From positions 123 through 64,122 of the forward strand of contig JAFTRC010000058.1 in the NCBI GenBank assembly GCA_017462455.1: a stretch of 64,000 bases of DNA. Direction: 5' to 3'. Origin of the DNA: Bacilli bacterium (GTDB taxonomy: Bacteria; Bacillota_I; Bacilli_A; RF39; UBA660). Shown in pieces: positions 17,912 to 53,486 of this stretch. The notes beneath the pieces are model-generated. The model made no database searches, was not told the origin of the DNA, and saw only the letters and a program-made list of their open reading frames with translations. Numbering within the stretch: position 1 is the stretch's first letter; each line of letters opens with the position of its first letter. Position numbers and translations under genes: made by a program.

Positions 17912-18799
17912 TCAATGATGGTGGTGATGTTTTTCTAAGTGTTCCATATCAATAGTACAATCTTTTTCATCACAAACTTCATCAATGTTTTCTAACTCAA
18001 TAGTTGTATGATTTATTCCATGTTCTTTTAATTCTTCTTTTACCAACTCTTTTAATTTCTTATTTTTACCATCACTTACTATATGTATTGTCGCATAGTT
18101 ATTATATCCATCTATACTCCATATATGAATATGATGAACATCTTTAACTCCTTTTATTTTTAATATATGTTTTTTTATTTCATTAATATTAATTCCTTTA
18201 GGAGTTTTTTCTAAAAATAAATCAATAACTAATTTTAAATTTTTTAAAGCAGTTATAAATATGAATAGCGCGACTAATATAGATAACATAGGATCTATTA
18301 TTCTTATATCAGTAAATCTCATTACTATAGCACCTATTAAAACTACTAGCCATCCAAATACATCTTCTAACATATGCAGATTAACAGACTTTTGGTTTAA
18401 AGAATGTCCTCCTTTAGTAAAATAAGCAGCTAAAAAGTTTACGATTACCCCTATAACAGCAAATATAATCATTCCATTATAATTTATTTCTACTGGATTT
18501 ATAATTCTTTTAATAGCACTTAAAACAACTAATATAGAGCCTATTATTAGAATTAGAGTTGTTACTAAACTCCCTATTACTGAATATCTAACATATCCAT
18601 AAGTGTATTTATTATCTGGTTTCTTTTTACTTTTCTTTTCTAAAAAATAAGATACTCCTATACTCATTGCATCACCAATATCATGAATTGAATCAGATAT
18701 TATAGCAACACTATTTGTTATTGTTCCGCCTATAAATTCAAATATAGAAAATCCTAAATTTAAAATAAAAGCTACTAATATATTTTTTTCTGTTTTCAT
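17912..18799 (-). CDS. cation diffusion facilitator (CzcD/ZitB-like) metal efflux transporter
   Basis: 6 TM segments with HDIGD and HMLED motifs and a His-rich C-terminus. Trimmed to the ATG at 18799 (GGTGG upstream) because the track extension would run through the MATE terminator. Confidence 0.85.
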   Translation of the reverse strand: MKTEKNILVAFILNLGFSIFEFIGGTITNSVAIISDSIHDIGDAMSIGVSYFLEKKSKKKPDNKYTYGYVRYSVIGSLVTTLILIIGSILVVLSAIKRIINPVEINYNGMIIFAVIGVIVNFLAAYFTKGGHSLNQKSVNLHMLEDVFGWLVVLIGAIVMRFTDIRIIDPMLSILVALFIFITALKNLKLVIDLFLEKTPKGININEIKKHILKIKGVKDVHHIHIWSIDGYNNYATIHIVSDGKNKKLKELVKEELKEHGINHTTIELENIDEVCDEKDCTIDMEHLEKHHHHH

Positions 18800-18844: not shown

Positions 18845-18879
18845 ATTAAAACAAAAACATTGGAATAATTCCAATGTTT
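18845..18879 (-). terminator. intrinsic terminator after the MATE-fusion gene
   Basis: 11-bp stem aaacattggaa/ttccaatgttt, followed by TTGTTTT on the minus strand. Confidence 0.65.
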
Positions 18880-18898
18880 GATTTATTGTAATTTGTAC

Positions 18899-20878
18899 TT
18901 ATTTGTTCAAAGTATTTATATAGTTAAGTATCACTTTTACAGTTTCTTCTGTACCAATGGAAGAATCTATACATAAATCATAGTTTTCAGCTTTGCCCCA
19001 TTCTTTACCAGAAATAGCTTTATAATAACTAGATCTATTTTTATCAGATTTCTTAATATTTTTTATAGCATCAGACTTTTTATCTTTATACATATCCATT
19101 ACATTTTTAATTCTTGTTTCTTCATCAGCAGTAATAAATATTCTAATAACATTTTTTCTATCTCTTAATACATAATCAGCAGCTCTACCAACTATCACGC
19201 ATGAACCTTTATCAGCAATCATATTAATTGCTTTTTCTTGTGCTTCAATAGCATATTTAACTGGTTCTGTAGTTAAGTATAAATCTCTTAAAATGTTATT
19301 AGATGAATTTAACTTATCAATAAATTCTCTATCTAAACCTGCTTCTTGTGCAGCCAATGCAGTCATTTCTTTATAGTAATATGGAATATTTAATTGTTCA
19401 GAAATTAACTTCCCAATATATTTTCCTTGACTACCATGACTTCTTGAAATCGCAATAATAATTCCTTCTTTAGAATTAAGTAATTTTGCTTTTTCAACTT
19501 TAACTTTCTTAGTTGAACTAATTTTCTTAAAGAATACAACTACTAATATAGAAGATACTATTATACCTACAACATCTGCTACAGGGGAAGCATATAGTGC
19601 TCCTTTTACTCCAAAGAATTTAGGTAAAATAATTACCATAGGAACAAAACAAACAATATCTCTTAATAAAGATGTAATTGCAGCTTTAACCGGATCTCCA
19701 ACCGCTTGAAAGAATATTGAAGTCATTTTAATTGTGCAAGTAAATGTGATTAACATTAAGAATATTCTAAATGTTATGACTGCAAATTCCATATATAAAT
19801 CTGATTCAGTACCAAACATTTTAATAACAACTTCTGGACATAATTCAAATACTAATGTTGATAAAATACCAACTATAATAGTAGAAATTAAAACTATCTT
19901 ATAAGTTTGTTTAACTCTATCAATTTTTTTTGCACCAAAGTTATATCCTAAAATTGGTTGTGCTCCTAATATAATACCTACTACTATATTAATAACAATA
20001 GTAAATACTTTCATACAAATACCCATAGTTGCAATAGGAATATCTGCACCATATTTTGACATTGCACCATATTTAGCTAACATAATATTACATACCAATG
20101 AAATAATTACTATAGACATTTGTGTTATAAAAGTACTAACACCTAATTTAATAACATTGCTAAATATACCCATATCTACTTTAAAACTATCTTTTGAAAG
20201 TTTAAAAGTTTTTGTACATTTTACAAAATAAACTATAGAAATAATTAACGATAATACCTGCCCTATAATTGTAGCCCAAGCTGCTCCTTCAATTCCCATA
20301 TCAAATACAAAAATAAAGATTGGGTCTAATATAATATTTGTAATTGCTCCTACTAAAGTTGCAATCATTGAACCCATTGGTGAACCATCAGCTCTAATAA
20401 TTGGATTCATAACATTAGCCATCATATATACAGGAATAAATAATAATATTATTTTAAAATAATCCTTTGATAGTCCTATTGTAACATCTGATGCCCCAAA
20501 CATTCTTAATAGCGGTTCCATAAATATAAAACCTAGTATTACAAATATAATACTAATAATAAAGTTAATTAAGATACTATTTCCAATTCCTTTGTGAACA
20601 TCTTTTGTATCTTTTCTTCCTTGTGCTAATGACAGAAATGCAGCTGAACCATCACCAAAGCACCATGCAAACGCAACTGAAATAATTGTTATTGGAAATA
20701 CTACAGATGTAGCTGCATTTCCTAAATAACCTAATTCACTATGTCCAATGAATATTTGGTCCACTATGTTATATAAAGAACTAATTAATAGTGATAATAT
20801 ACATGGAATAGCAAACTTAAATAAAATTTTTGATATCTTTTCTTCTCCAAGGTATCTATTGTTTTCTTGATTTCCCAT
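18899..20878 (-). CDS. MATE-family efflux transporter fused to a C-terminal cytidylate-kinase-like (Cytidylate_kin2) domain
   Basis: The N-terminal ~450 aa form a 12-TM MATE-like region. The C-terminal ~200 aa begin IIIAISRSHGSQGKYIGKLISEQLNIPYY, typical of the cytidylate-kinase-like family. One uninterrupted ORF. Confidence 0.8.
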   Translation of the reverse strand: MGNQENNRYLGEEKISKILFKFAIPCILSLLISSLYNIVDQIFIGHSELGYLGNAATSVVFPITIISVAFAWCFGDGSAAFLSLAQGRKDTKDVHKGIGNSILINFIISIIFVILGFIFMEPLLRMFGASDVTIGLSKDYFKIILLFIPVYMMANVMNPIIRADGSPMGSMIATLVGAITNIILDPIFIFVFDMGIEGAAWATIIGQVLSLIISIVYFVKCTKTFKLSKDSFKVDMGIFSNVIKLGVSTFITQMSIVIISLVCNIMLAKYGAMSKYGADIPIATMGICMKVFTIVINIVVGIILGAQPILGYNFGAKKIDRVKQTYKIVLISTIIVGILSTLVFELCPEVVIKMFGTESDLYMEFAVITFRIFLMLITFTCTIKMTSIFFQAVGDPVKAAITSLLRDIVCFVPMVIILPKFFGVKGALYASPVADVVGIIVSSILVVVFFKKISSTKKVKVEKAKLLNSKEGIIIAISRSHGSQGKYIGKLISEQLNIPYYYKEMTALAAQEAGLDREFIDKLNSSNNILRDLYLTTEPVKYAIEAQEKAINMIADKGSCVIVGRAADYVLRDRKNVIRIFITADEETRIKNVMDMYKDKKSDAIKNIKKSDKNRSSYYKAISGKEWGKAENYDLCIDSSIGTEETVKVILNYINTLNK

Positions 20879-20924
20879 TTTCTCCTCCTTATTTTACAAT
20901 CAACCCACTAGCTTTATTTAGGGC

Positions 20925-20963
20925 AAAAAAATAATGCGAAAAAGATGTCTCTTTTTACGCATT
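20925..20963 (-). terminator. promoter-proximal intrinsic terminator in the leader of the MATE-fusion gene
   Basis: On the minus strand: aatgcg-t-aaaaaga gaca tcttttt-cgcatt (13 bp), followed by ATTTTTTT. It lies about 45 nt upstream of the start codon. Confidence 0.6.
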
Positions 20964-20985
20964 AAGCTGGGTCTGACAAGATAAA

Positions 20986-20994
20986 ATTATATCA
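20986..20994 (-). promoter_or_regulatory. extended -10 promoter element TGATATAAT (leader of MATE-fusion gene)
   Basis: The minus strand reads aaaatgTGaTATAATttt. A second TGATATAAT lies at 21087..21095. Confidence 0.45.
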
Positions 20995-21162
20995 CATTTT
21001 CTTATTTTTGTGGACACTTTTTTTATAAAATCCTATAAAAAAGATCATTTCCAATAAACATAAACTACTATTTATCTATCAGTTGTATTATATCATGGAT
21101 TTTCAGAAAATTAGAGTACTAGAATGACTAGCTTCTAGGTTTTGTAAGGATTTGCACAATAT

Positions 21163-21425
21163 TGTGTAGCCTACCTGTAGCCATATGTAACCTACGACTA
21201 CAAAATCGTGTAATTTATCTATTTTAGACAAGCTAAAAAGCCCGTAAATAGGGCTTTTGAAACATTGAAATAAGTAATTCTTAACGTTTTGTAAATTAGC
21301 ATTCCTTTATTTATGCGGATTTATGAGGACTTTGTAGCCTACTTGTACTCTACCTAAACTGACTACAACTAACTCTTAGATACCTTAATAATTTACTTAA
21401 ATTTTAGAATTTTACTTCTTACAAA
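21163..21425. repeat. composite att-like repeat unit A (iterons, terminator, pseudo rpsI 3' end, iterons)
   Basis: Aligns by eye over about 240 bp with unit B and over about 150 bp with unit C. Terminator hairpin at 21235..21258, pseudo rpsI end at 21281..21298, and iterons at 21166, 21177, 21187, 21334 and 21345. Confidence 0.8.
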
Positions 21426-21449
21426 AAAATTAATTATTTTTATTTATAA

Positions 21450-22124
21450 TTAAACTTTTTTTCTTAGTGTTAAGACGTGCCAATTTTTTTGTTCCTTACC
21501 ACCTTCATTGTGATATTCTTCTATTTCAAACAAATCTTTTCTTAAATATTCAATATCTTCCTTGCTAAAATAAGCATAGAATCTTTTTTCTTTTGTCGGT
21601 TTATCTTCTAAAACTTTATACTCACATTTCGTTCCATTTGGCAATACACTTGCATTAGGATGAACATCAGCATTCTGAAAATTAATTATTAATAATCCGT
21701 CATCTGTTAATGCGTTATAGGCAACGTCAAATAATTTTTTCATATCATCCATATCTAAATGTGGGTTCCTCCATGATACTATAAGGTCTGCTTTAAAATC
21801 AAAAACATCATTATAGTTATCTAATAAAAAATTATATTTTTTTACTTTATTAATTCCAATTCTATTTTGCTCATTTAGAAAATCATCAACAGTATCAGTT
21901 GCTATAACGTTATATCCTGCAGATTGAAGCATAAAAGCAAGTTGTCCGCATCCACTTCCAAATTCTATAATTTTTTTATTCTTATCCTTACATAAATTAT
22001 TTTCAACATAATCAAATAATTTATCCCACTTTTCTGTTTCTGGATCAATTTCATTACGTTGTATATATTCAAGCGCACCGCCAGAATTATACATATTTAT
22101 AGTTTTTATATTGTGTTCACTCAT
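21450..22124 (-). CDS. class I SAM-dependent methyltransferase
   Basis: Motif I IIEFGSGCGQLAFMLQSAG followed by VIATD. GGAGG lies upstream. Confidence 0.7.
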   Translation of the reverse strand: MSEHNIKTINMYNSGGALEYIQRNEIDPETEKWDKLFDYVENNLCKDKNKKIIEFGSGCGQLAFMLQSAGYNVIATDTVDDFLNEQNRIGINKVKKYNFLLDNYNDVFDFKADLIVSWRNPHLDMDDMKKLFDVAYNALTDDGLLIINFQNADVHPNASVLPNGTKCEYKVLEDKPTKEKRFYAYFSKEDIEYLRKDLFEIEEYHNEGGKEQKNWHVLTLRKKV

Positions 22125-22202
22125 GATTTACCTCCATTAAATATTATATCACATTTTATTGTTTTATCCTATATAAACACACTAACTATCTAAATCCGAT
22201 TT

Positions 22203-22440
22203 TTTGTAATCTACCTGTATACTTCTTGTATGATACGAGCTAAAAAATTGTTTTCTATCAAGCAAAAAAGCCCATATAATCGGGCTTTTGAAATAAACTG
22301 TAAATTAACGTTTACTAAATTAGCTTCCCTTTGTTTATGCGGGTTTACAGCGTTTTTGTATGATACTCGTATGATACCTGCAGTGTCTTCAACTGACTCT
22401 AAGATATCTTAGTAATTTTTTACTTATTTGACTTCTAACT
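22203..22440. repeat. composite att-like repeat unit B
   Basis: Iterons at 22206, 22217 and 22228, terminator hairpin at 22264..22289, pseudo rpsI end at 22305..22322, iterons at 22358 and 22369, and a palindrome at 22399..22412. Confidence 0.8.
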
Positions 22441-22454
22441 AATAAATTGTAATT

Positions 22455-23417
22455 TTATTTTATTGTTAATGTTTTATTTTCATTGTCATTATCAGTTGCT
22501 TTTGATACTGTTAGATAAAATGTTCTAGTATCTTCTTCACCAACATAGAAAACACCATTAGCGACACCTTCTTTTACAGAACTAAATATATATTCTGAAT
22601 CTAAACTTTCAACTTCTACAACATCAATGCCTGCCATTTCATATCCACTTAATTCTTTACCTTTAATTGTTATAACATCACCAACTGAAAGTTCAATGTG
22701 ATAATCTGCACTTTCAGGAGTAATGCTTTCGTCCATATTTTCTTTTGCTAATTCTAAAGAGTATCCTTTAAGCTCACTGAAATTACCTTCTTTATTTACA
22801 GTTAATTTTGATGTCATAGTGCAACTATCTTTTTCACATTCTGCTGATAAATTGTATGAAAATGTATTATTATCTTCATCTTTAAAGCTAGTATCATTTT
22901 TATAGCTACTTTCAACAAATTCTACAACTTTATCTCCAAAGTCTTTAGTTAAAATTACAGTTCCTTCTCCTTCGTAATCTTCTGCGTTATCAACTACAAT
23001 ATAAGTTTCAGCATCTTCTGATATTGAACTAAACATTCCATCTAAATATAAGTTATCAAAATACACACTTGAATCTTCAAAATCTACCCCATAGGTATTA
23101 GCAAGTGCTATATATCCTACCTTTGGTAATGTAAACCCATCTGTTTTTGAAATATATTCTTCGTAATCTATTCCTTTTTTTACTTCTACTTCATAAATGA
23201 ATGTTGGATTATCACTTAAATCATACATAATAGTATAATTTTGTTCATTATGTTTAACTGTCATTGTATTATTTTCTACTTTTACTTCATAACCATATTC
23301 ATTTACTTCTGAATTAGTATACTCATTCAATGCATTTTTAAATTCCTTATTTACTTCTCCACATCCTGTTAATACCAAACCTGATATTAAACCTAATAAT
23401 AATATTTTCTTTTTCAT
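22455..23417 (-). CDS. hypothetical lipoprotein
   Basis: Signal peptide with lipobox (LISGLVLTGC). Acidic extracytoplasmic body. No family recognised. Confidence 0.6.
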   Translation of the reverse strand: MKKKILLLGLISGLVLTGCGEVNKEFKNALNEYTNSEVNEYGYEVKVENNTMTVKHNEQNYTIMYDLSDNPTFIYEVEVKKGIDYEEYISKTDGFTLPKVGYIALANTYGVDFEDSSVYFDNLYLDGMFSSISEDAETYIVVDNAEDYEGEGTVILTKDFGDKVVEFVESSYKNDTSFKDEDNNTFSYNLSAECEKDSCTMTSKLTVNKEGNFSELKGYSLELAKENMDESITPESADYHIELSVGDVITIKGKELSGYEMAGIDVVEVESLDSEYIFSSVKEGVANGVFYVGEEDTRTFYLTVSKATDNDNENKTLTIK

Positions 23418-23438
23418 TTAATTTCCTCCTAATTTATT

Positions 23439-23942
23439 TTATGCTTTTGTACATTCGTATTTTAATTTAATTTTATCACCGTCTGTCATTGTGAAATCAT
23501 CCATAACTGTAGAACAAGTATAATTTTCTGGAATATTTTCAAATGTTATTGTATATTCTCCTGCTTTTACACCTAATTCAGTTATATTTGTTCCTGATGT
23601 TTCATCAAAATCTATTGTAAATAAGTGGTCGTTACTTTCAACTCTTAAACTTAAGCCATTTATTACTTCTCCGTTTTGATCAGATACAATAAAGGTTACT
23701 GAGTTTTTTGGTGCAAACATTATGCCTATATTTTTAAATACTGCTAAAACAACACAAATTAAAACAACAATTACAAGAATAATACCTAATACTTTTTGCC
23801 ATAAAGGTTGTTTAGGAATTCCTTTTCCATTTTCTTTCTTTTTATCATATTCTTTTTTTGATTCTTCATAACCTTTTTTCATTAATTCTTTTAAGTTTTT
23901 AAAGTCTTCAGCATTAAAATTTGATTTATTGTTTTCTGACAT
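23439..23942 (-). CDS. hypothetical type-II membrane-anchored protein with small beta-rich ectodomain
   Basis: Charged N-terminus, one TM segment (VLGIILVIVVLICVVLAVF), then about 95 aa. GGAGGG lies upstream. Confidence 0.55.
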   Translation of the reverse strand: MSENNKSNFNAEDFKNLKELMKKGYEESKKEYDKKKENGKGIPKQPLWQKVLGIILVIVVLICVVLAVFKNIGIMFAPKNSVTFIVSDQNGEVINGLSLRVESNDHLFTIDFDETSGTNITELGVKAGEYTITFENIPENYTCSTVMDDFTMTDGDKIKLKYECTKA

Positions 23943-24132
23943 TTATTTCCCTCCATCCTTAATTCAAAATAATACATTAAAAATAAATTCATCTCAGCAT
24001 ATTATTTGATATTATTAATATTATACCACAAATTCGCCAAAAATCAGAATTACAAAAACCTCCAAAATAACGGCTTTATTTTTATGTATTTTGGCGTATG
24101 AAGACACGCTAATTTTCTAAAGCGCTCCCAAC

Positions 24133-24283
24133 TTTTTGTATGATACTCGTATGATACGTGTATGATACGAGTTAAAAATTCATTTTCAAACAAGCAAAAA
24201 AGCCCGTAAATACGAGCTTTTCGAAACATTGAAATACGTAATTTTGTACCAATATTGGTAATTTTTTAACGTTTTGAGAATTG
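24133..24283. repeat. composite att-like repeat unit C (abuts and includes the live rpsI 3' end)
   Basis: Three perfect GTATGATAC iterons at 24138, 24149 and 24160, a terminator at 24196..24221, a 14-bp palindrome at 24247..24260, and the rpsI stop at 24266. Confidence 0.8.
24196..24221 (-). terminator. intrinsic terminator of rplM-rpsI
   Basis: On the minus strand: aaaagctcg tatttac gggctttttt. Homologous hairpins occur in units A and B. Confidence 0.7.
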
Positions 24284-24685
24284 AGGTGCACGACGTGCTG
24301 CTTTTAATCCTGGTTTCTTTCTTTCTTTAGCTCTTGAATCACGAGTAACGAATCCAACTTTCTTTAAGATTTTTCTATAGCTATCTTCGTTTCCTTCATT
24401 AGCTTCATCATATTGTAATAAAGCTCTTGTAATTCCTAAACGGATTGCTCCAGTTTGTCCAGAAGCTCCTCCACCAGAAACTTTAACTTCGATATCGAAA
24501 GTGTTTTCGTTATTTGTAGCTACTAAAGGTTGTTTTAAATCCATTACATAAGTTGCATATGGCATAAATTCATTAACATCTACACCATTAACAGTTATTT
24601 TTCCTTCACCAGCTTTGCACATAGTCATTTTAACTTGAGCTACTGAAGATTTTCTTCTACCTGTTCCTATAAATACTTTTGCCAT
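24266..24685 (-). CDS. rpsI: 30S ribosomal protein S9
   Basis: Contains [10 protein letters not shown] ... RAPQFSKR. Follows rplM. Confidence 0.95.
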
Positions 24686-52597: not shown

Positions 52598-52611
52598 TAT
52601 TATTCCTCCTA

Positions 52612-53079
52612 TTATTCTAGGAAGTTATCATCTATTGAAACACTATCTCCAAATTCAGCAAACGGATCATTTTCAACATTTACTTCTGGAGCTTTATTAC
52701 TGTCTTGGTAATCATAAGGTGTTGGCTCATAGTTGTTTGAACTACTTGATTGTTCTCTAGCAGCTTTGCTTTCAACAAATTCAAAATTGTCTAAAGCAAC
52801 ATCAACAGTATATCTCTTGTTTCCATCTTTATCATCGTAACTTCCAGTTTGTAATCTACCCTCTAGGGCAATTAAATTTCCTTTATCAAAATATCTTGAT
52901 ATTGTTTCTGCTTGTTTACGCCATGCAACTACATTTATAAAATCAGCATCTCTTTTTCCATCAGCATTTGTAAAATTTCTATTTACCGCAACACTAAATC
53001 TTGTATATGCTGTATTTTGTGGTGTATAACGTAATTCTGGTTTAGCAGTTAATCTTCCTACTAATACTACCTTATTCAT
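52612..53079 (-). CDS. ssb: single-stranded DNA-binding protein
   Basis: Starts [21 protein letters not shown] fold plus an acidic tail. Confidence 0.95.
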
Positions 53080-53090
53080 AGATTCACCTC

Positions 53091-53393
53091 TTAGTCTTCC
53101 TTATTAATTATTATATGTCTAATAATATCGTTACTAATTAAAGCTAAACGATCAAATTCTTTAACAGCTTTGTCGTCACCAGCTTCAATGTTAACTACGA
53201 AGTAATATCCACTTTTGTAAGTATTATTTCCTACTTTGATTTCATAAGCTAATGTTTTTTGTCCCCAAGCGTCAACACTTGTAACCTTAGCTCCATTAGT
53301 TTCTAATGTTTTTTGGAAGTTAGATGCAACTTTTTTTATTTCATCTTCTCCTAATGTAGGTCTTACAACGAACATAATTTCATAATTTCTCAT
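53091..53393 (-). CDS. rpsF: 30S ribosomal protein S6
   Basis: Starts MRNYEIMFVVRP. Confidence 0.95.
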   Translation of the reverse strand: MRNYEIMFVVRPTLGEDEIKKVASNFQKTLETNGAKVTSVDAWGQKTLAYEIKVGNNTYKSGYYFVVNIEAGDDKAVKEFDRLALISNDIIRHIIINKED

Positions 53394-53486
53394 TCTTACA
53401 CCTCCTTATGGTCTTTGGCTCTTTCGAGCAAGGAGTAAATTTCTTCACTCGACATAGATTATAACAAACTTTTTTTAGTTTGTAAA
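53394..53486 (-). promoter_or_regulatory. rpsF promoter (TTTACA-17-TATAAT) and hairpin-containing leader (candidate S6:S18-binding leader)
   Basis: -35 at 53481..53486 and -10 at 53458..53463. The leader hairpin tcgagtgaag..actccttgctcga precedes the SD AAGGAGGTG. Confidence 0.45.

Follow-up and report, generated by a model that had tools for sequence, protein, structure and literature searches.

Within the 64-kb stretch of DNA analysed here (the window), the gene for ribosomal protein S9, rpsI (139 residues, 24266..24685; Pfam Ribosomal_S9, E = 5e-42), is followed by three intergenic units, A (21163..21425), B (22203..22440) and C (24133..24283); all features of the locus lie on the minus strand. 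The first-pass annotation had described these units as aligning with one another downstream of rpsI, and every part it listed is found where it was placed. The string CAAGCWAAAAAGCCC occurs three times in the 64-kb window, each time within a unit, against 0.17 copies expected, and no further copies of units A, B or C are found in the 64 kb outside the rpsI-adjacent locus. Exact GTATGATAC occurs seven times in the window, six of them in units B and C at a spacing of 11 bp. The core, TTAACGTTT...AATT, lies at 24266-24282, which is the true end of rpsI, and again at 22305-22321 and 21281-21297, and units A and B have in common a spacer of ∼45 nt, two more repeats and a tail of ∼60-80 nt reaching the stop codon of the preceding gene. 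The 11-bp-phased iterons proposed earlier are present as 9-bp near-palindromes at strict 11-bp spacing, but their sequence differs between units: GTATCATAC is found in C and on the right of B, the left of B is mixed, and GTAGGCTAC-like repeats occupy A. A minus-strand terminator had likewise been proposed for every unit; that of unit C passes a terminator scan, as does only the native rpsI terminator besides, whereas the hairpins of A and B are recognised by eye and in folding only.

Judged on sequence, unit C is a predicted attL and units A and B are predicted attR/attL junctions, with cassettes 1 and 2 bounded by attL and attR (units C/B and B/A, respectively) and cassette 3 retaining a left site only. 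The attL core of unit C is formed by the last codons and stop of rpsI (CAATTCTCAAAACGTTAA, 24266..24283), and the same 18-nt core type is found in phage attP sites. The P′ arm of cassette 1 contributes the terminator hairpin that now ends rpsI (24197..24222, terminator scan) and three perfect GTATCATAC repeats at 11-bp spacing (24138..24168, repeat search), followed by an extended -10-like box, TGTGGTATAAT (24020..24030, a consensus match only), and a two-gene cargo (22455..23942) encoding a 167-residue membrane protein (23439-23942) and a 320-residue lipoprotein (22455-23417). Its P arm, the right part of unit B (22358..22455), consists of a tail that begins AAATTACAATTTA at the lipoprotein stop codon and two perfect GTATCATAC repeats (22358-22377). 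Beyond the unit B core copy (TAATTTAGTAAACGTTAA, 22305..22322), a mimic of the rpsI 3′ end, the left part of unit B (22206..22289) forms the P′ arm of cassette 2, with a hairpin (22266-22289) and the repeats GTATCATAC, GAAGTATAC and GTAGATTAC (22206-22236). A -10-like box (22143-22153) and a class I SAM-methyltransferase gene (21450-22124) then make up the body of this cassette (21450..22153), and its P arm, the right part of unit A (21334..21449), holds the tail and the repeats GTAGAGTAC and GTAGGCTAC. The unit A core copy (TAATTTACAAAACGTTAA, 21281..21298) adjoins the P′ arm of cassette 3 (left part of unit A, 21166..21258), in which a hairpin (21236-21258) accompanies three repeats (21166-21195), one with a 1-nt deletion. 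Cassette 3 continues with a -10-like box (20986-20996), a leader and a MatE plus cytidylate-kinase-like fusion gene (18899-20878), a segment (18899..20996) with no right arm left. The native rpsI terminator (18855..18879, terminator scan), the B′ side of attB, is displaced 5.4 kb from rpsI, and the first conserved chromosomal gene past the array encodes a cation-efflux (CDF) protein (17912..18799). The membrane protein, lipoprotein, methyltransferase and MatE fusion are the sole cargo in the window. Arm decay rises with distance from rpsI, from five of five perfect repeats in cassette 1, through mixed repeats in cassette 2, whose two arms match each other poorly, to the loss of the right arm in cassette 3, a gradient that fits successive insertion beside rpsI.

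The array is longer than was originally described. The inserted region had been taken to end at unit A, with the MATE-fusion gene as chromosomal flank; it in fact extends to the native terminator at 18855-18879 and so includes this gene, which is a third, older cassette. The fusion gene is absent from the sister species L002, L007 and L083, and in L007 and L083 the native-terminator hairpin lies directly 3′ of rpsI. These two species also lack the methyltransferase gene and have the CDF gene directly after rpsI, which refutes the earlier caveat that the methyltransferase might be ancestral. A 78% identical homologue of the methyltransferase is found downstream of rpsI in L028, in an insertion whose only flanking feature is a duplicated terminator and which has no arm repeats. 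The gene pair of cassette 1 recurs between decayed units in L134, and its cargo is present at 97% identity, without recognisable arms, in contig L136, indicating that cargo can also move or persist independently of att sites.

In sister species the site is either empty, with rpsI, the native terminator and the CDF gene in succession, or occupied by different cassettes, and in a set of 80 related species the next conserved gene lies anywhere from about 100 bp to >7 kb away from rpsI. Among contigs with an identical RplM protein the site is empty in L083 and filled by other cassettes in L084 and L085. We considered these contigs as strains of the window's species, an assignment that was dropped given only 84-91% nucleotide identity in trpS and the CDF gene; they are sister species. 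No polymorphism was seen within the species, five assemblies with an identical RpsI protein having the same gene neighbours. In relatives with empty or differing sites the breakpoints fall at the core, in keeping with the repeated site-specific insertion at the rpsI 3′ end that had been proposed. L010 provides a clean single insertion, in which the rpsI core, a P′ arm, one gene, a P arm, a second core and a native-type terminator follow in order, and its arms closely resemble the attP of phage L103. Core copies match the rpsI codons of each host, AAACGTTAA in some and AAGAGATAG in others (L020, L023, L033), which argues that these are real site-specific insertions, and repeat types agree on both sides of the cassette in cassette 1 of the window and in L002, L006, L010, L020, L023, L033 and L123. 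Such arrays are present in many species of this uncultured low-GC gut lineage, in arrangements that differ between relatives, and carry transporters, toxin-antitoxin pairs and defence genes as well as riboswitch-type cargo (a T-box with tyrS, a SAM riboswitch with metK).

Aligned with the attP of phage contigs L102, L103 and L107, units A and B correspond column by column; unit C aligns with attL sites of prophages at rpsI. Common to these sites is the order two repeats, ∼40 nt, the core CAATTyNNNAAnnGnTAr, a terminator, a spacer and three repeats, with the core copying the last ∼18 nt of rpsI and, in the phages only, a tyrosine integrase gene following. Two plus three repeats at 11-bp spacing are common to the window and the phage attP of L102, L103, L107, L106 and L131. 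The sites had been proposed as arm-core-arm structures of attP size, a description now substantiated by their collinearity with phage attP beside tyrosine integrase genes. The phages compared are temperate and come from the window's low-GC lineage; their three-repeat arrays lie immediately next to a Phage_integrase gene (PF00589, E = 2.5e-25) at its 3′ end, int adjoins the P′ repeats in L095-L101, L105, L106 and L132 (PF00589 and PF14657 matches), and the L098 integrase matches an N-terminal arm-binding domain (Pfam Arm-DNA-bind_4). Neighbours of the integrase gene include an S24 CI-type repressor and an amidase lysin, and L101 and L096 are prophages sited at rplM-rpsI. The rpsI phages found carry GTAGGCAAC, GTAGCCAAC or GTAGCATAC repeats, and in the viral contigs scanned we found neither a phage or integrase with the window's own variants GTATCATAC and GTAGGCTAC at rpsI, nor a match to the window-type P′ arm, P-arm tail or P-arm-plus-core string. 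Pairs of GTATCATAC in viral contigs were rejected as marking cognate phages, the matches being to unrelated phages of higher GC only. The repeat variants may represent separate specificities.

An integrase HMM found no match in the 64-kb window or in any cassette array examined, and Pfam lists covering the whole 64-kb window contain no recombinase, bearing out the first-pass annotation on this point. Its suggestion of a recombinase acting in trans is likewise supported, with none in the window and cognate-type tyrosine integrases in phages. An integrase ∼9 kb upstream of rpsI in L005 and L006 was discounted as the cognate enzyme, as it belongs to a different island and has no adjoining arm repeats. 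A scan of a single metagenome yielded four loci, all integrase-less cassettes.

We put at roughly 80% the probability that three integrase-less elements arrayed in tandem make up 18880-24265, each inserted site-specifically at a phage attachment site consisting of the last ∼18 nt of rpsI. Each element would bring an attP comprising a P arm that holds two arm-type repeats in 11-bp phase, a core mimicking the rpsI end, and a P′ arm with a terminator and three repeats, and integration would yield the order rpsI-core-P′ ... P-core. A second insertion beside rpsI would convert the old attL to a P-core-P′ junction, which would account for unit C as attL and units B and A as junctions, and the original rpsI terminator would be pushed to the far end of the array. 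As new insertions would enter next to rpsI, the oldest cassette, that of the MATE fusion, should be the furthest away and the most decayed. The enzymes responsible would be lambda-like tyrosine integrases with an arm-binding N-terminal domain, supplied in trans by temperate phages of the lineage, and the cassettes would have either lost their integrase or never had one. We infer that the array arose by CIME-like tandem accretion, with phages as the integrase donors.

It is conceivable, though we hold it doubtful, that the integrase-less cassettes are actively mobile minimal elements, each one regulated gene with a full attP, which would use the integrases of rpsI-targeting temperate phages to move into and out of phage genomes or the chromosome through recombination between att sites, and would be carried along by the phage. 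They could instead be inert fossils, each cassette once a full prophage at rpsI and since whittled down by deletion within an immobile array, an explanation we consider a real possibility while rating it below even odds. In L012 a 13-codon stub of the integrase C-terminus is kept directly after the P′ repeats, as expected of such decay; tblastx of arrays against phage loci gives mostly AT-rich noise, with only the att arms and this stub real. The drop in arm quality away from rpsI, the identical gene order in five assemblies of the species, and the extra genes that phages carry beside attP, such as the DUF7685 ORF between repeats and int in L101 and L102, point the same way. The P′ repeats of the phages, however, lie no more than about 30 nt from the stop codon of int, and deletions occurring at random would be expected in many cases to leave stubs behind or take the arms. 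Yet apart from the L012 stub we detected no integrase fragment or phage gene in the integrase-less arrays examined, many of which have both arms intact, nor any phage remnant in the window's cassettes. The cargo is also hard to reconcile with whittled prophages, being made up of non-phage genes that come with promoters or riboswitches of their own (T-box and tyrS, SAM riboswitch and metK); the window's lipoprotein and methyltransferase have no match among 50,697 phage records (GenBank phages).

One- or two-gene cassettes, mostly in one orientation, with a repeated recombination site between them and a cargo rich in toxin-antitoxin, defence and transport genes could also suggest an integron-like system, in which a resident integrase specialised for the task would take up promoterless cassettes by way of folded attC-type sites. 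We regard this as very improbable: there is no integrase beside the array or within the 64 kb, the genes upstream being rplM and rpsI, every cassette has its own -10-like box, and the sites are double-stranded, attP-like arm-core-arm structures common to phages. Folded as single-stranded DNA, units A and B form no unit-wide hairpin, the terminator stem alone being stable (z-scores -1.9 and -2.4). An equally remote reading takes the units for a generic intergenic repeat, or a locally duplicated terminator or regulatory module, unrelated to site-specific recombination. While the most conserved block does hold the terminator hairpin, and the L028 methyltransferase insertion does have a duplicated terminator and no arm repeats, the units and their phased repeats were found only downstream of rpsI, both in the window and in ∼1.3 Mb of loci from relatives, rather than scattered at unrelated loci. 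That core copies track each host's rpsI codons and that the architecture equals phage attP beside int further argue against a generic repeat, and no Rfam match was found in the region.

The locus illustrates how one fixed position in the chromosome serves an uncultured gut lineage with small genomes for the acquisition and storage of accessory genes, among them transporters, toxin-antitoxin pairs, defence genes and riboswitch-controlled copies of tyrS and metK. It also offers a fully dissected attP, as predicted from sequence, for a phage integrase family, with core, arm repeats and spacing defined, and this attP and its repeat variants might serve as a recombination tool set. Should phages still be able to mobilise the cassettes, these would form a bridge between prophage remnants and true gene-cassette systems, and small-genome gut Bacilli would possess a phage-driven, integron-like form of cassette exchange.

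A lambda-type attP consists of P1, P2, core and P′1-P′3 and is recognised by an arm-binding tyrosine integrase. The sites described here appear analogous, the core being flanked by two putative arm-type sites on one side and by three in tandem on the opposite side, and the L098 integrase shares the N-terminal arm-binding domain. They differ in the near-palindromic 9-bp form and strict 11-bp spacing of the arm sites, at which binding is predicted, and in a P′ arm that bears a terminator replacing the host gene's own. Integron cassette arrays are similar in their single-gene cassettes, accessory cargo and intervening recombination sites; here, by contrast, an adjacent integrase and a folded attC-type site are both lacking, and each cassette has a putative promoter of its own. 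CIMEs and the tandem accretion of ICE/IME-type elements have been defined and modelled in streptococci (ICESt1/ICESt3 family; reviewed in PMC5704250). Like the streptococcal CIMEs, the window cassettes have no integration genes, keep attL and attR and stand one behind another at the 3′ end of a conserved gene (PMC5704250), but the donors would be temperate phages instead of ICEs or IMEs, the cassettes, with one or two genes in about 0.8-2.3 kb, are much smaller, and decay of a larger element is seen for L012 only. Insertion at the rpsI 3′ end by a tyrosine integrase is known in Streptococcus for IMESag-rpsI and other ICEs/IMEs (PMC5704250, PMC5357655); target and enzyme class are the same, whereas those elements are ∼9 kb or larger with their own integrase and relaxase, neither of which the window cassettes encode. 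Similar growth is described for the Tycheposon islands of Prochlorococcus (bioRxiv 10.1101/2020.12.28.424599), where elements integrating time and again at a single site displace older ones inwards, and where degenerate remnants persist together with repeated partial copies of the target. The targets of Tycheposons are tRNA genes, however, and these elements bring an integrase and a replication module of their own, whereas those at rpsI carry cargo only. Array building at rpsI would follow a known genomic-island route, which takes an unusually minimal and phage-linked form in these uncultured gut bacteria.

The window corresponds to the reverse strand of a metagenome scaffold of 65 kb (ENA ERZ28654584, scaffold_990), from a host with 27.5% GC and spore-germination genes whose closest relatives are uncultured gut 'Bacilli/Tenericutes' MAGs. 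Its minus strand reads trpS, rplM, rpsI (24266–24685), a 167-residue membrane protein and a 320-residue lipoprotein (cassette 1), a methyltransferase (cassette 2), a fusion of MatE and cytidylate-kinase-like domains (the MATE fusion, cassette 3), a cation-efflux (CDF) gene, GDPD, gmk and rlmI. RpsI itself (minus strand) has 139 residues compared with 136 in nearly all close relatives, the difference being a three-residue insertion near the N-terminus of the window protein (relatives: MTAGKGK). A second small variable spot, at about 52600–53400 between ychF and rpsF, holds an HTH_26 gene and a CmpB-like gene on the opposite strand, and in the related contig L128 (10373–11086) an unrelated 237-residue gene.

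The three repeat units proposed downstream of rpsI in the first-pass annotation, A (21163–21425), B (22203–22440) and C (24133–24283), are all real and can be aligned to each other. All three copies of the terminator-flank string CAAGCWAAAAAGCCC in the window fall inside the units (0.17 copies expected), and of seven exact GTATGATAC sites units B and C contain six, spaced 11 bp apart. The core, TTAACGTTT...AATT, is present at the true end of rpsI and once each in units A and B. In the direction of rpsI a full unit comprises a tail, two repeats (the P arm), ∼45 nt, the core, and then a terminator hairpin, ∼35 nt and three repeats (the P' arm). Repeat type varies among units: unit C has three GTATCATAC, unit B two GTATCATAC upstream of the core and a mixed trio downstream, and unit A GTAGAGTAC and GTAGGCTAC upstream with GTAGGTTAC-type repeats downstream. 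The repeats on either side of cassette 1, five in all, are therefore perfect and of one type. None of the units matched an Rfam family. Between the rpsI stop and the conserved P' sequence, unit C has ∼20 extra nucleotides with a small palindrome (CCAATATTGG; 24245–24265, minus strand), an insert common to L043 and L126, and a different small palindrome occupies the same spot in L084 and L085 (L-numbers denote loci and contigs of relatives, phages and metagenomes compared with the window). The exact 13-mer AAATTACAATTTA at 22443–22455 (minus strand) lies directly 3' of the cassette cargo stop codon and delimits the P arm on its outer side; it is also found at L002:9944, L005:11603, L006:13316, L084:2408 and L136:374 and 2258, with about nine exact copies in 1.7 Mb of loci, mostly within rpsI arrays.

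Across the 80 loci of an RpsI scan, one per species, the first conserved gene past rpsI (CDF, GDPD, gmk or rlmI) lies anywhere between about 100 bp and more than 7 kb away. In L007, L009, L014, L019, L021, L024, L034, L051 and L063 a simple native terminator separates rpsI from the conserved gene; L007 and L083 show precisely the series rpsI, terminator AAACATTGGAAT..CCAATGTTT, CDF gene. This terminator is found in the window at 18855–18879, past the stop codon of the MATE fusion, so the inserted DNA spans about 18880–24265 and includes that gene. The earlier views that the methyltransferase might be ancestral after rpsI, and that unit A bounds the array with the MATE gene outside it, must therefore be abandoned, as L007 and L083 pass straight from the rpsI terminator to the CDF gene and the native terminator follows the MATE fusion. 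Contigs encoding an identical RplM have either an empty site (L083) or other cassettes (L084, L085, L088) and represent sister species (84–91% identity in trpS and the CDF gene), while five assemblies with an identical RpsI protein share the same gene neighbours. Presence or absence of modules among relatives, which the first pass suggested looking for, is thus seen between close species but not within the window's species.

The same site recurs in at least ten species representatives (L002, L005, L006, L008, L010, L012, L020, L023, L032 and L033) as a terminator with two or three GTAGnnnAC-type repeats in 11-bp phase behind it, ∼95 nt past the rpsI stop, and in decayed form in L011, L015, L036 and L042; within the relatives' 20-kb loci, phased arrays are confined to the region downstream of rpsI. 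L010 gives a textbook example of one insertion: the rpsI core, a P' arm bearing three GTAGGCAAC-type repeats, a single gene of 199 residues, one repeat, ∼45 nt, then the second core (CCCAATTCTCTAAACGTTAA) and a native-type terminator. L023 holds an 'empty' element of core, terminator, two repeats, 45 nt and second core. Hosts whose rpsI ends in AAGAGATAG rather than AAACGTTAA have that ending in the downstream core copies too (L020, L023, L033), the outcome expected of target duplication through site-specific recombination. The two flanks of a cassette carry matching repeat types in L002, L006, L010, L020, L023, L033 and L123.

Viral contigs scanned for the repeat triplet yielded 16 loci. L101 and L096 are prophages at rplM-rpsI, where the rpsI core is followed by a terminator, the spacer TTAAGRTAT, three copies of the GTAGGCAAC repeat and a convergent 347-residue gene. 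This gene matches Phage_integrase (E = 2.5e-25), and beyond it lie an S24 CI-type repressor and a Cro-like gene. Free attP sites, located between lysin (Amidase_2 + CW_7) and int in L102, L103, L107 and L095, consist of two repeats, ∼40 nt, core, terminator, spacer and three repeats. The L098 int also matches an Arm DNA-binding domain, an rpsI-type core and three GTAGCATAC repeats adjoin int in L132, and L106 and L131 have the same 2 + 3 layout around a tRNA 3' end. A joint alignment shows units A and B to be collinear with the phage attP sites, and unit C to be collinear with attL. No GenBank phage integrase exceeds 41% identity to these integrases, and the best named matches belong to Butyrivibrio phages. 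Recombinases of the cognate type, next to the same kind of iterons, exist in phages such as L101 and L096; no phage with the window's own repeat variants at rpsI was found.

An HMM built from seven phage integrases, run against all stop-to-stop frames of at least 40 residues in the window and loci L001–L091, gave zero matches in the window and zero in any region downstream of rpsI. The Pfam lists of the whole scaffold likewise contain housekeeping genes only and no recombinase, confirming the initial claim that the 64 kb lacks an integrase. There is no recombinase among 30 cargo ORFs from other arrays, and four metagenome matches are all integrase-less cassettes again. About 9 kb upstream of rpsI, two sister species carry a different island, absent from the window (L005:249–1498; L006:256–894), comprising a tyrosine integrase, whose gene is split in L005, and then AAA-ATPase and RloB-like genes; arm repeats were not seen next to this integrase.

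Repeated site-specific insertion at the rpsI 3' end, as first proposed, is supported and extended by the collinear phage attP sites and by core copies that track the host rpsI, and growth by accretion is the best reading of the array sequence. A P-core-P' element would recombine with the rpsI core to give rpsI-core-P' ... P-core-B', the next insertion beside rpsI would create a P-core-P' junction, and the P' arm would bring a replacement terminator for rpsI. Arm quality drops with distance from rpsI, which fits the newest cassette being nearest the gene, as in other islands. Prophage decay does happen, as L012 retains a 13-codon integrase stub directly after its repeats. The arrays examined contain no other stub or phage gene, many have both arms intact and the cargo is non-phage, so some cassettes may move as minimal elements with phage help.

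The 30 cargo ORFs include a second TyrRS behind a T-box, MetK behind a SAM riboswitch, TetR, VanZ, GntR with an ABC transporter, RelB/YafQ, a TOTE primase-helicase, AAA_21 with RloB, a HipA-like protein, DUF3800, Tag and others. Some cassettes hold complete regulated housekeeping-type genes (L002:6289–7840; L011:8336–9509), one pairing a T-box leader (100.7 bits) with tyrosyl-tRNA synthetase and another a SAM riboswitch (67.5 bits) with MetK. Downstream of rpsI in L008 (1065–11065) is a 10-kb run of conflict-type genes with a P' arm at its start (RelB, TOTE AEP-primase/helicase, AAA_21 + RloB, HipA-like kinase and PRiA4_ORF3). The membrane protein and lipoprotein pair of cassette 1 reappears between decayed units in L134 (lipoprotein 56% identical) and, at 97% nucleotide identity and without clear arms, in L136, so cargo is not strictly bound to att sites; homology to the cassette 1 cargo in L136 stops exactly at AAATTACAATTTA. 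In the distant species L028 (9824–11200; RpsI 78% identical), a 78% identical methyltransferase copy lies downstream of rpsI, with a further ORF upstream of it and a duplicated terminator, without arm repeats, as flank. Cassette 3 (18899–20878, minus strand) encodes an unusual 659-residue fusion of a MatE efflux domain and a C-terminal cytidylate-kinase-like domain, and its leader (20879–20985) has a hairpin and then a T-run (about 20930–20965) that match no Rfam family. In several cassettes with different downstream cargo (L002:10298–10453; L005:10651–10806; L006:11730–11885; L084:1296–1436), the P' arm is followed by a nearly identical gene, preceded by a conserved leader, for a ∼51-residue two-helix membrane peptide (MKK..LYAILCALGGGIIGFFAN..LNK); this gene might serve the cassette 'vehicle' in a toxin-like or stabilising role. 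Leader-like sequence of this gene follows unit A in the window, the ORF being absent.

The units are not integron attC sites, because there is no adjacent integrase, a unit does not fold over its whole length and each cassette has its own promoter-like box (TGTGRTATAAT, extended −10-like by consensus match only; 24020–24030, 22143–22153 and 20986–20996). For streptococcal ICEs and IMEs, both tyrosine-integrase elements at the rpsI 3' end and integrase-less att-flanked CIMEs growing by accretion are already established (PMC5704250, PMC5357655), and tycheposons exemplify island growth by repeated integration (bioRxiv 10.1101/2020.12.28.424599). The novelty lies in the combination of phage integrases as the evident partners with cassettes that are very small, single-gene and bounded by complete attP-like junctions, with several repeat variants inside one array, and with recurrence in many species of an uncultured lineage.
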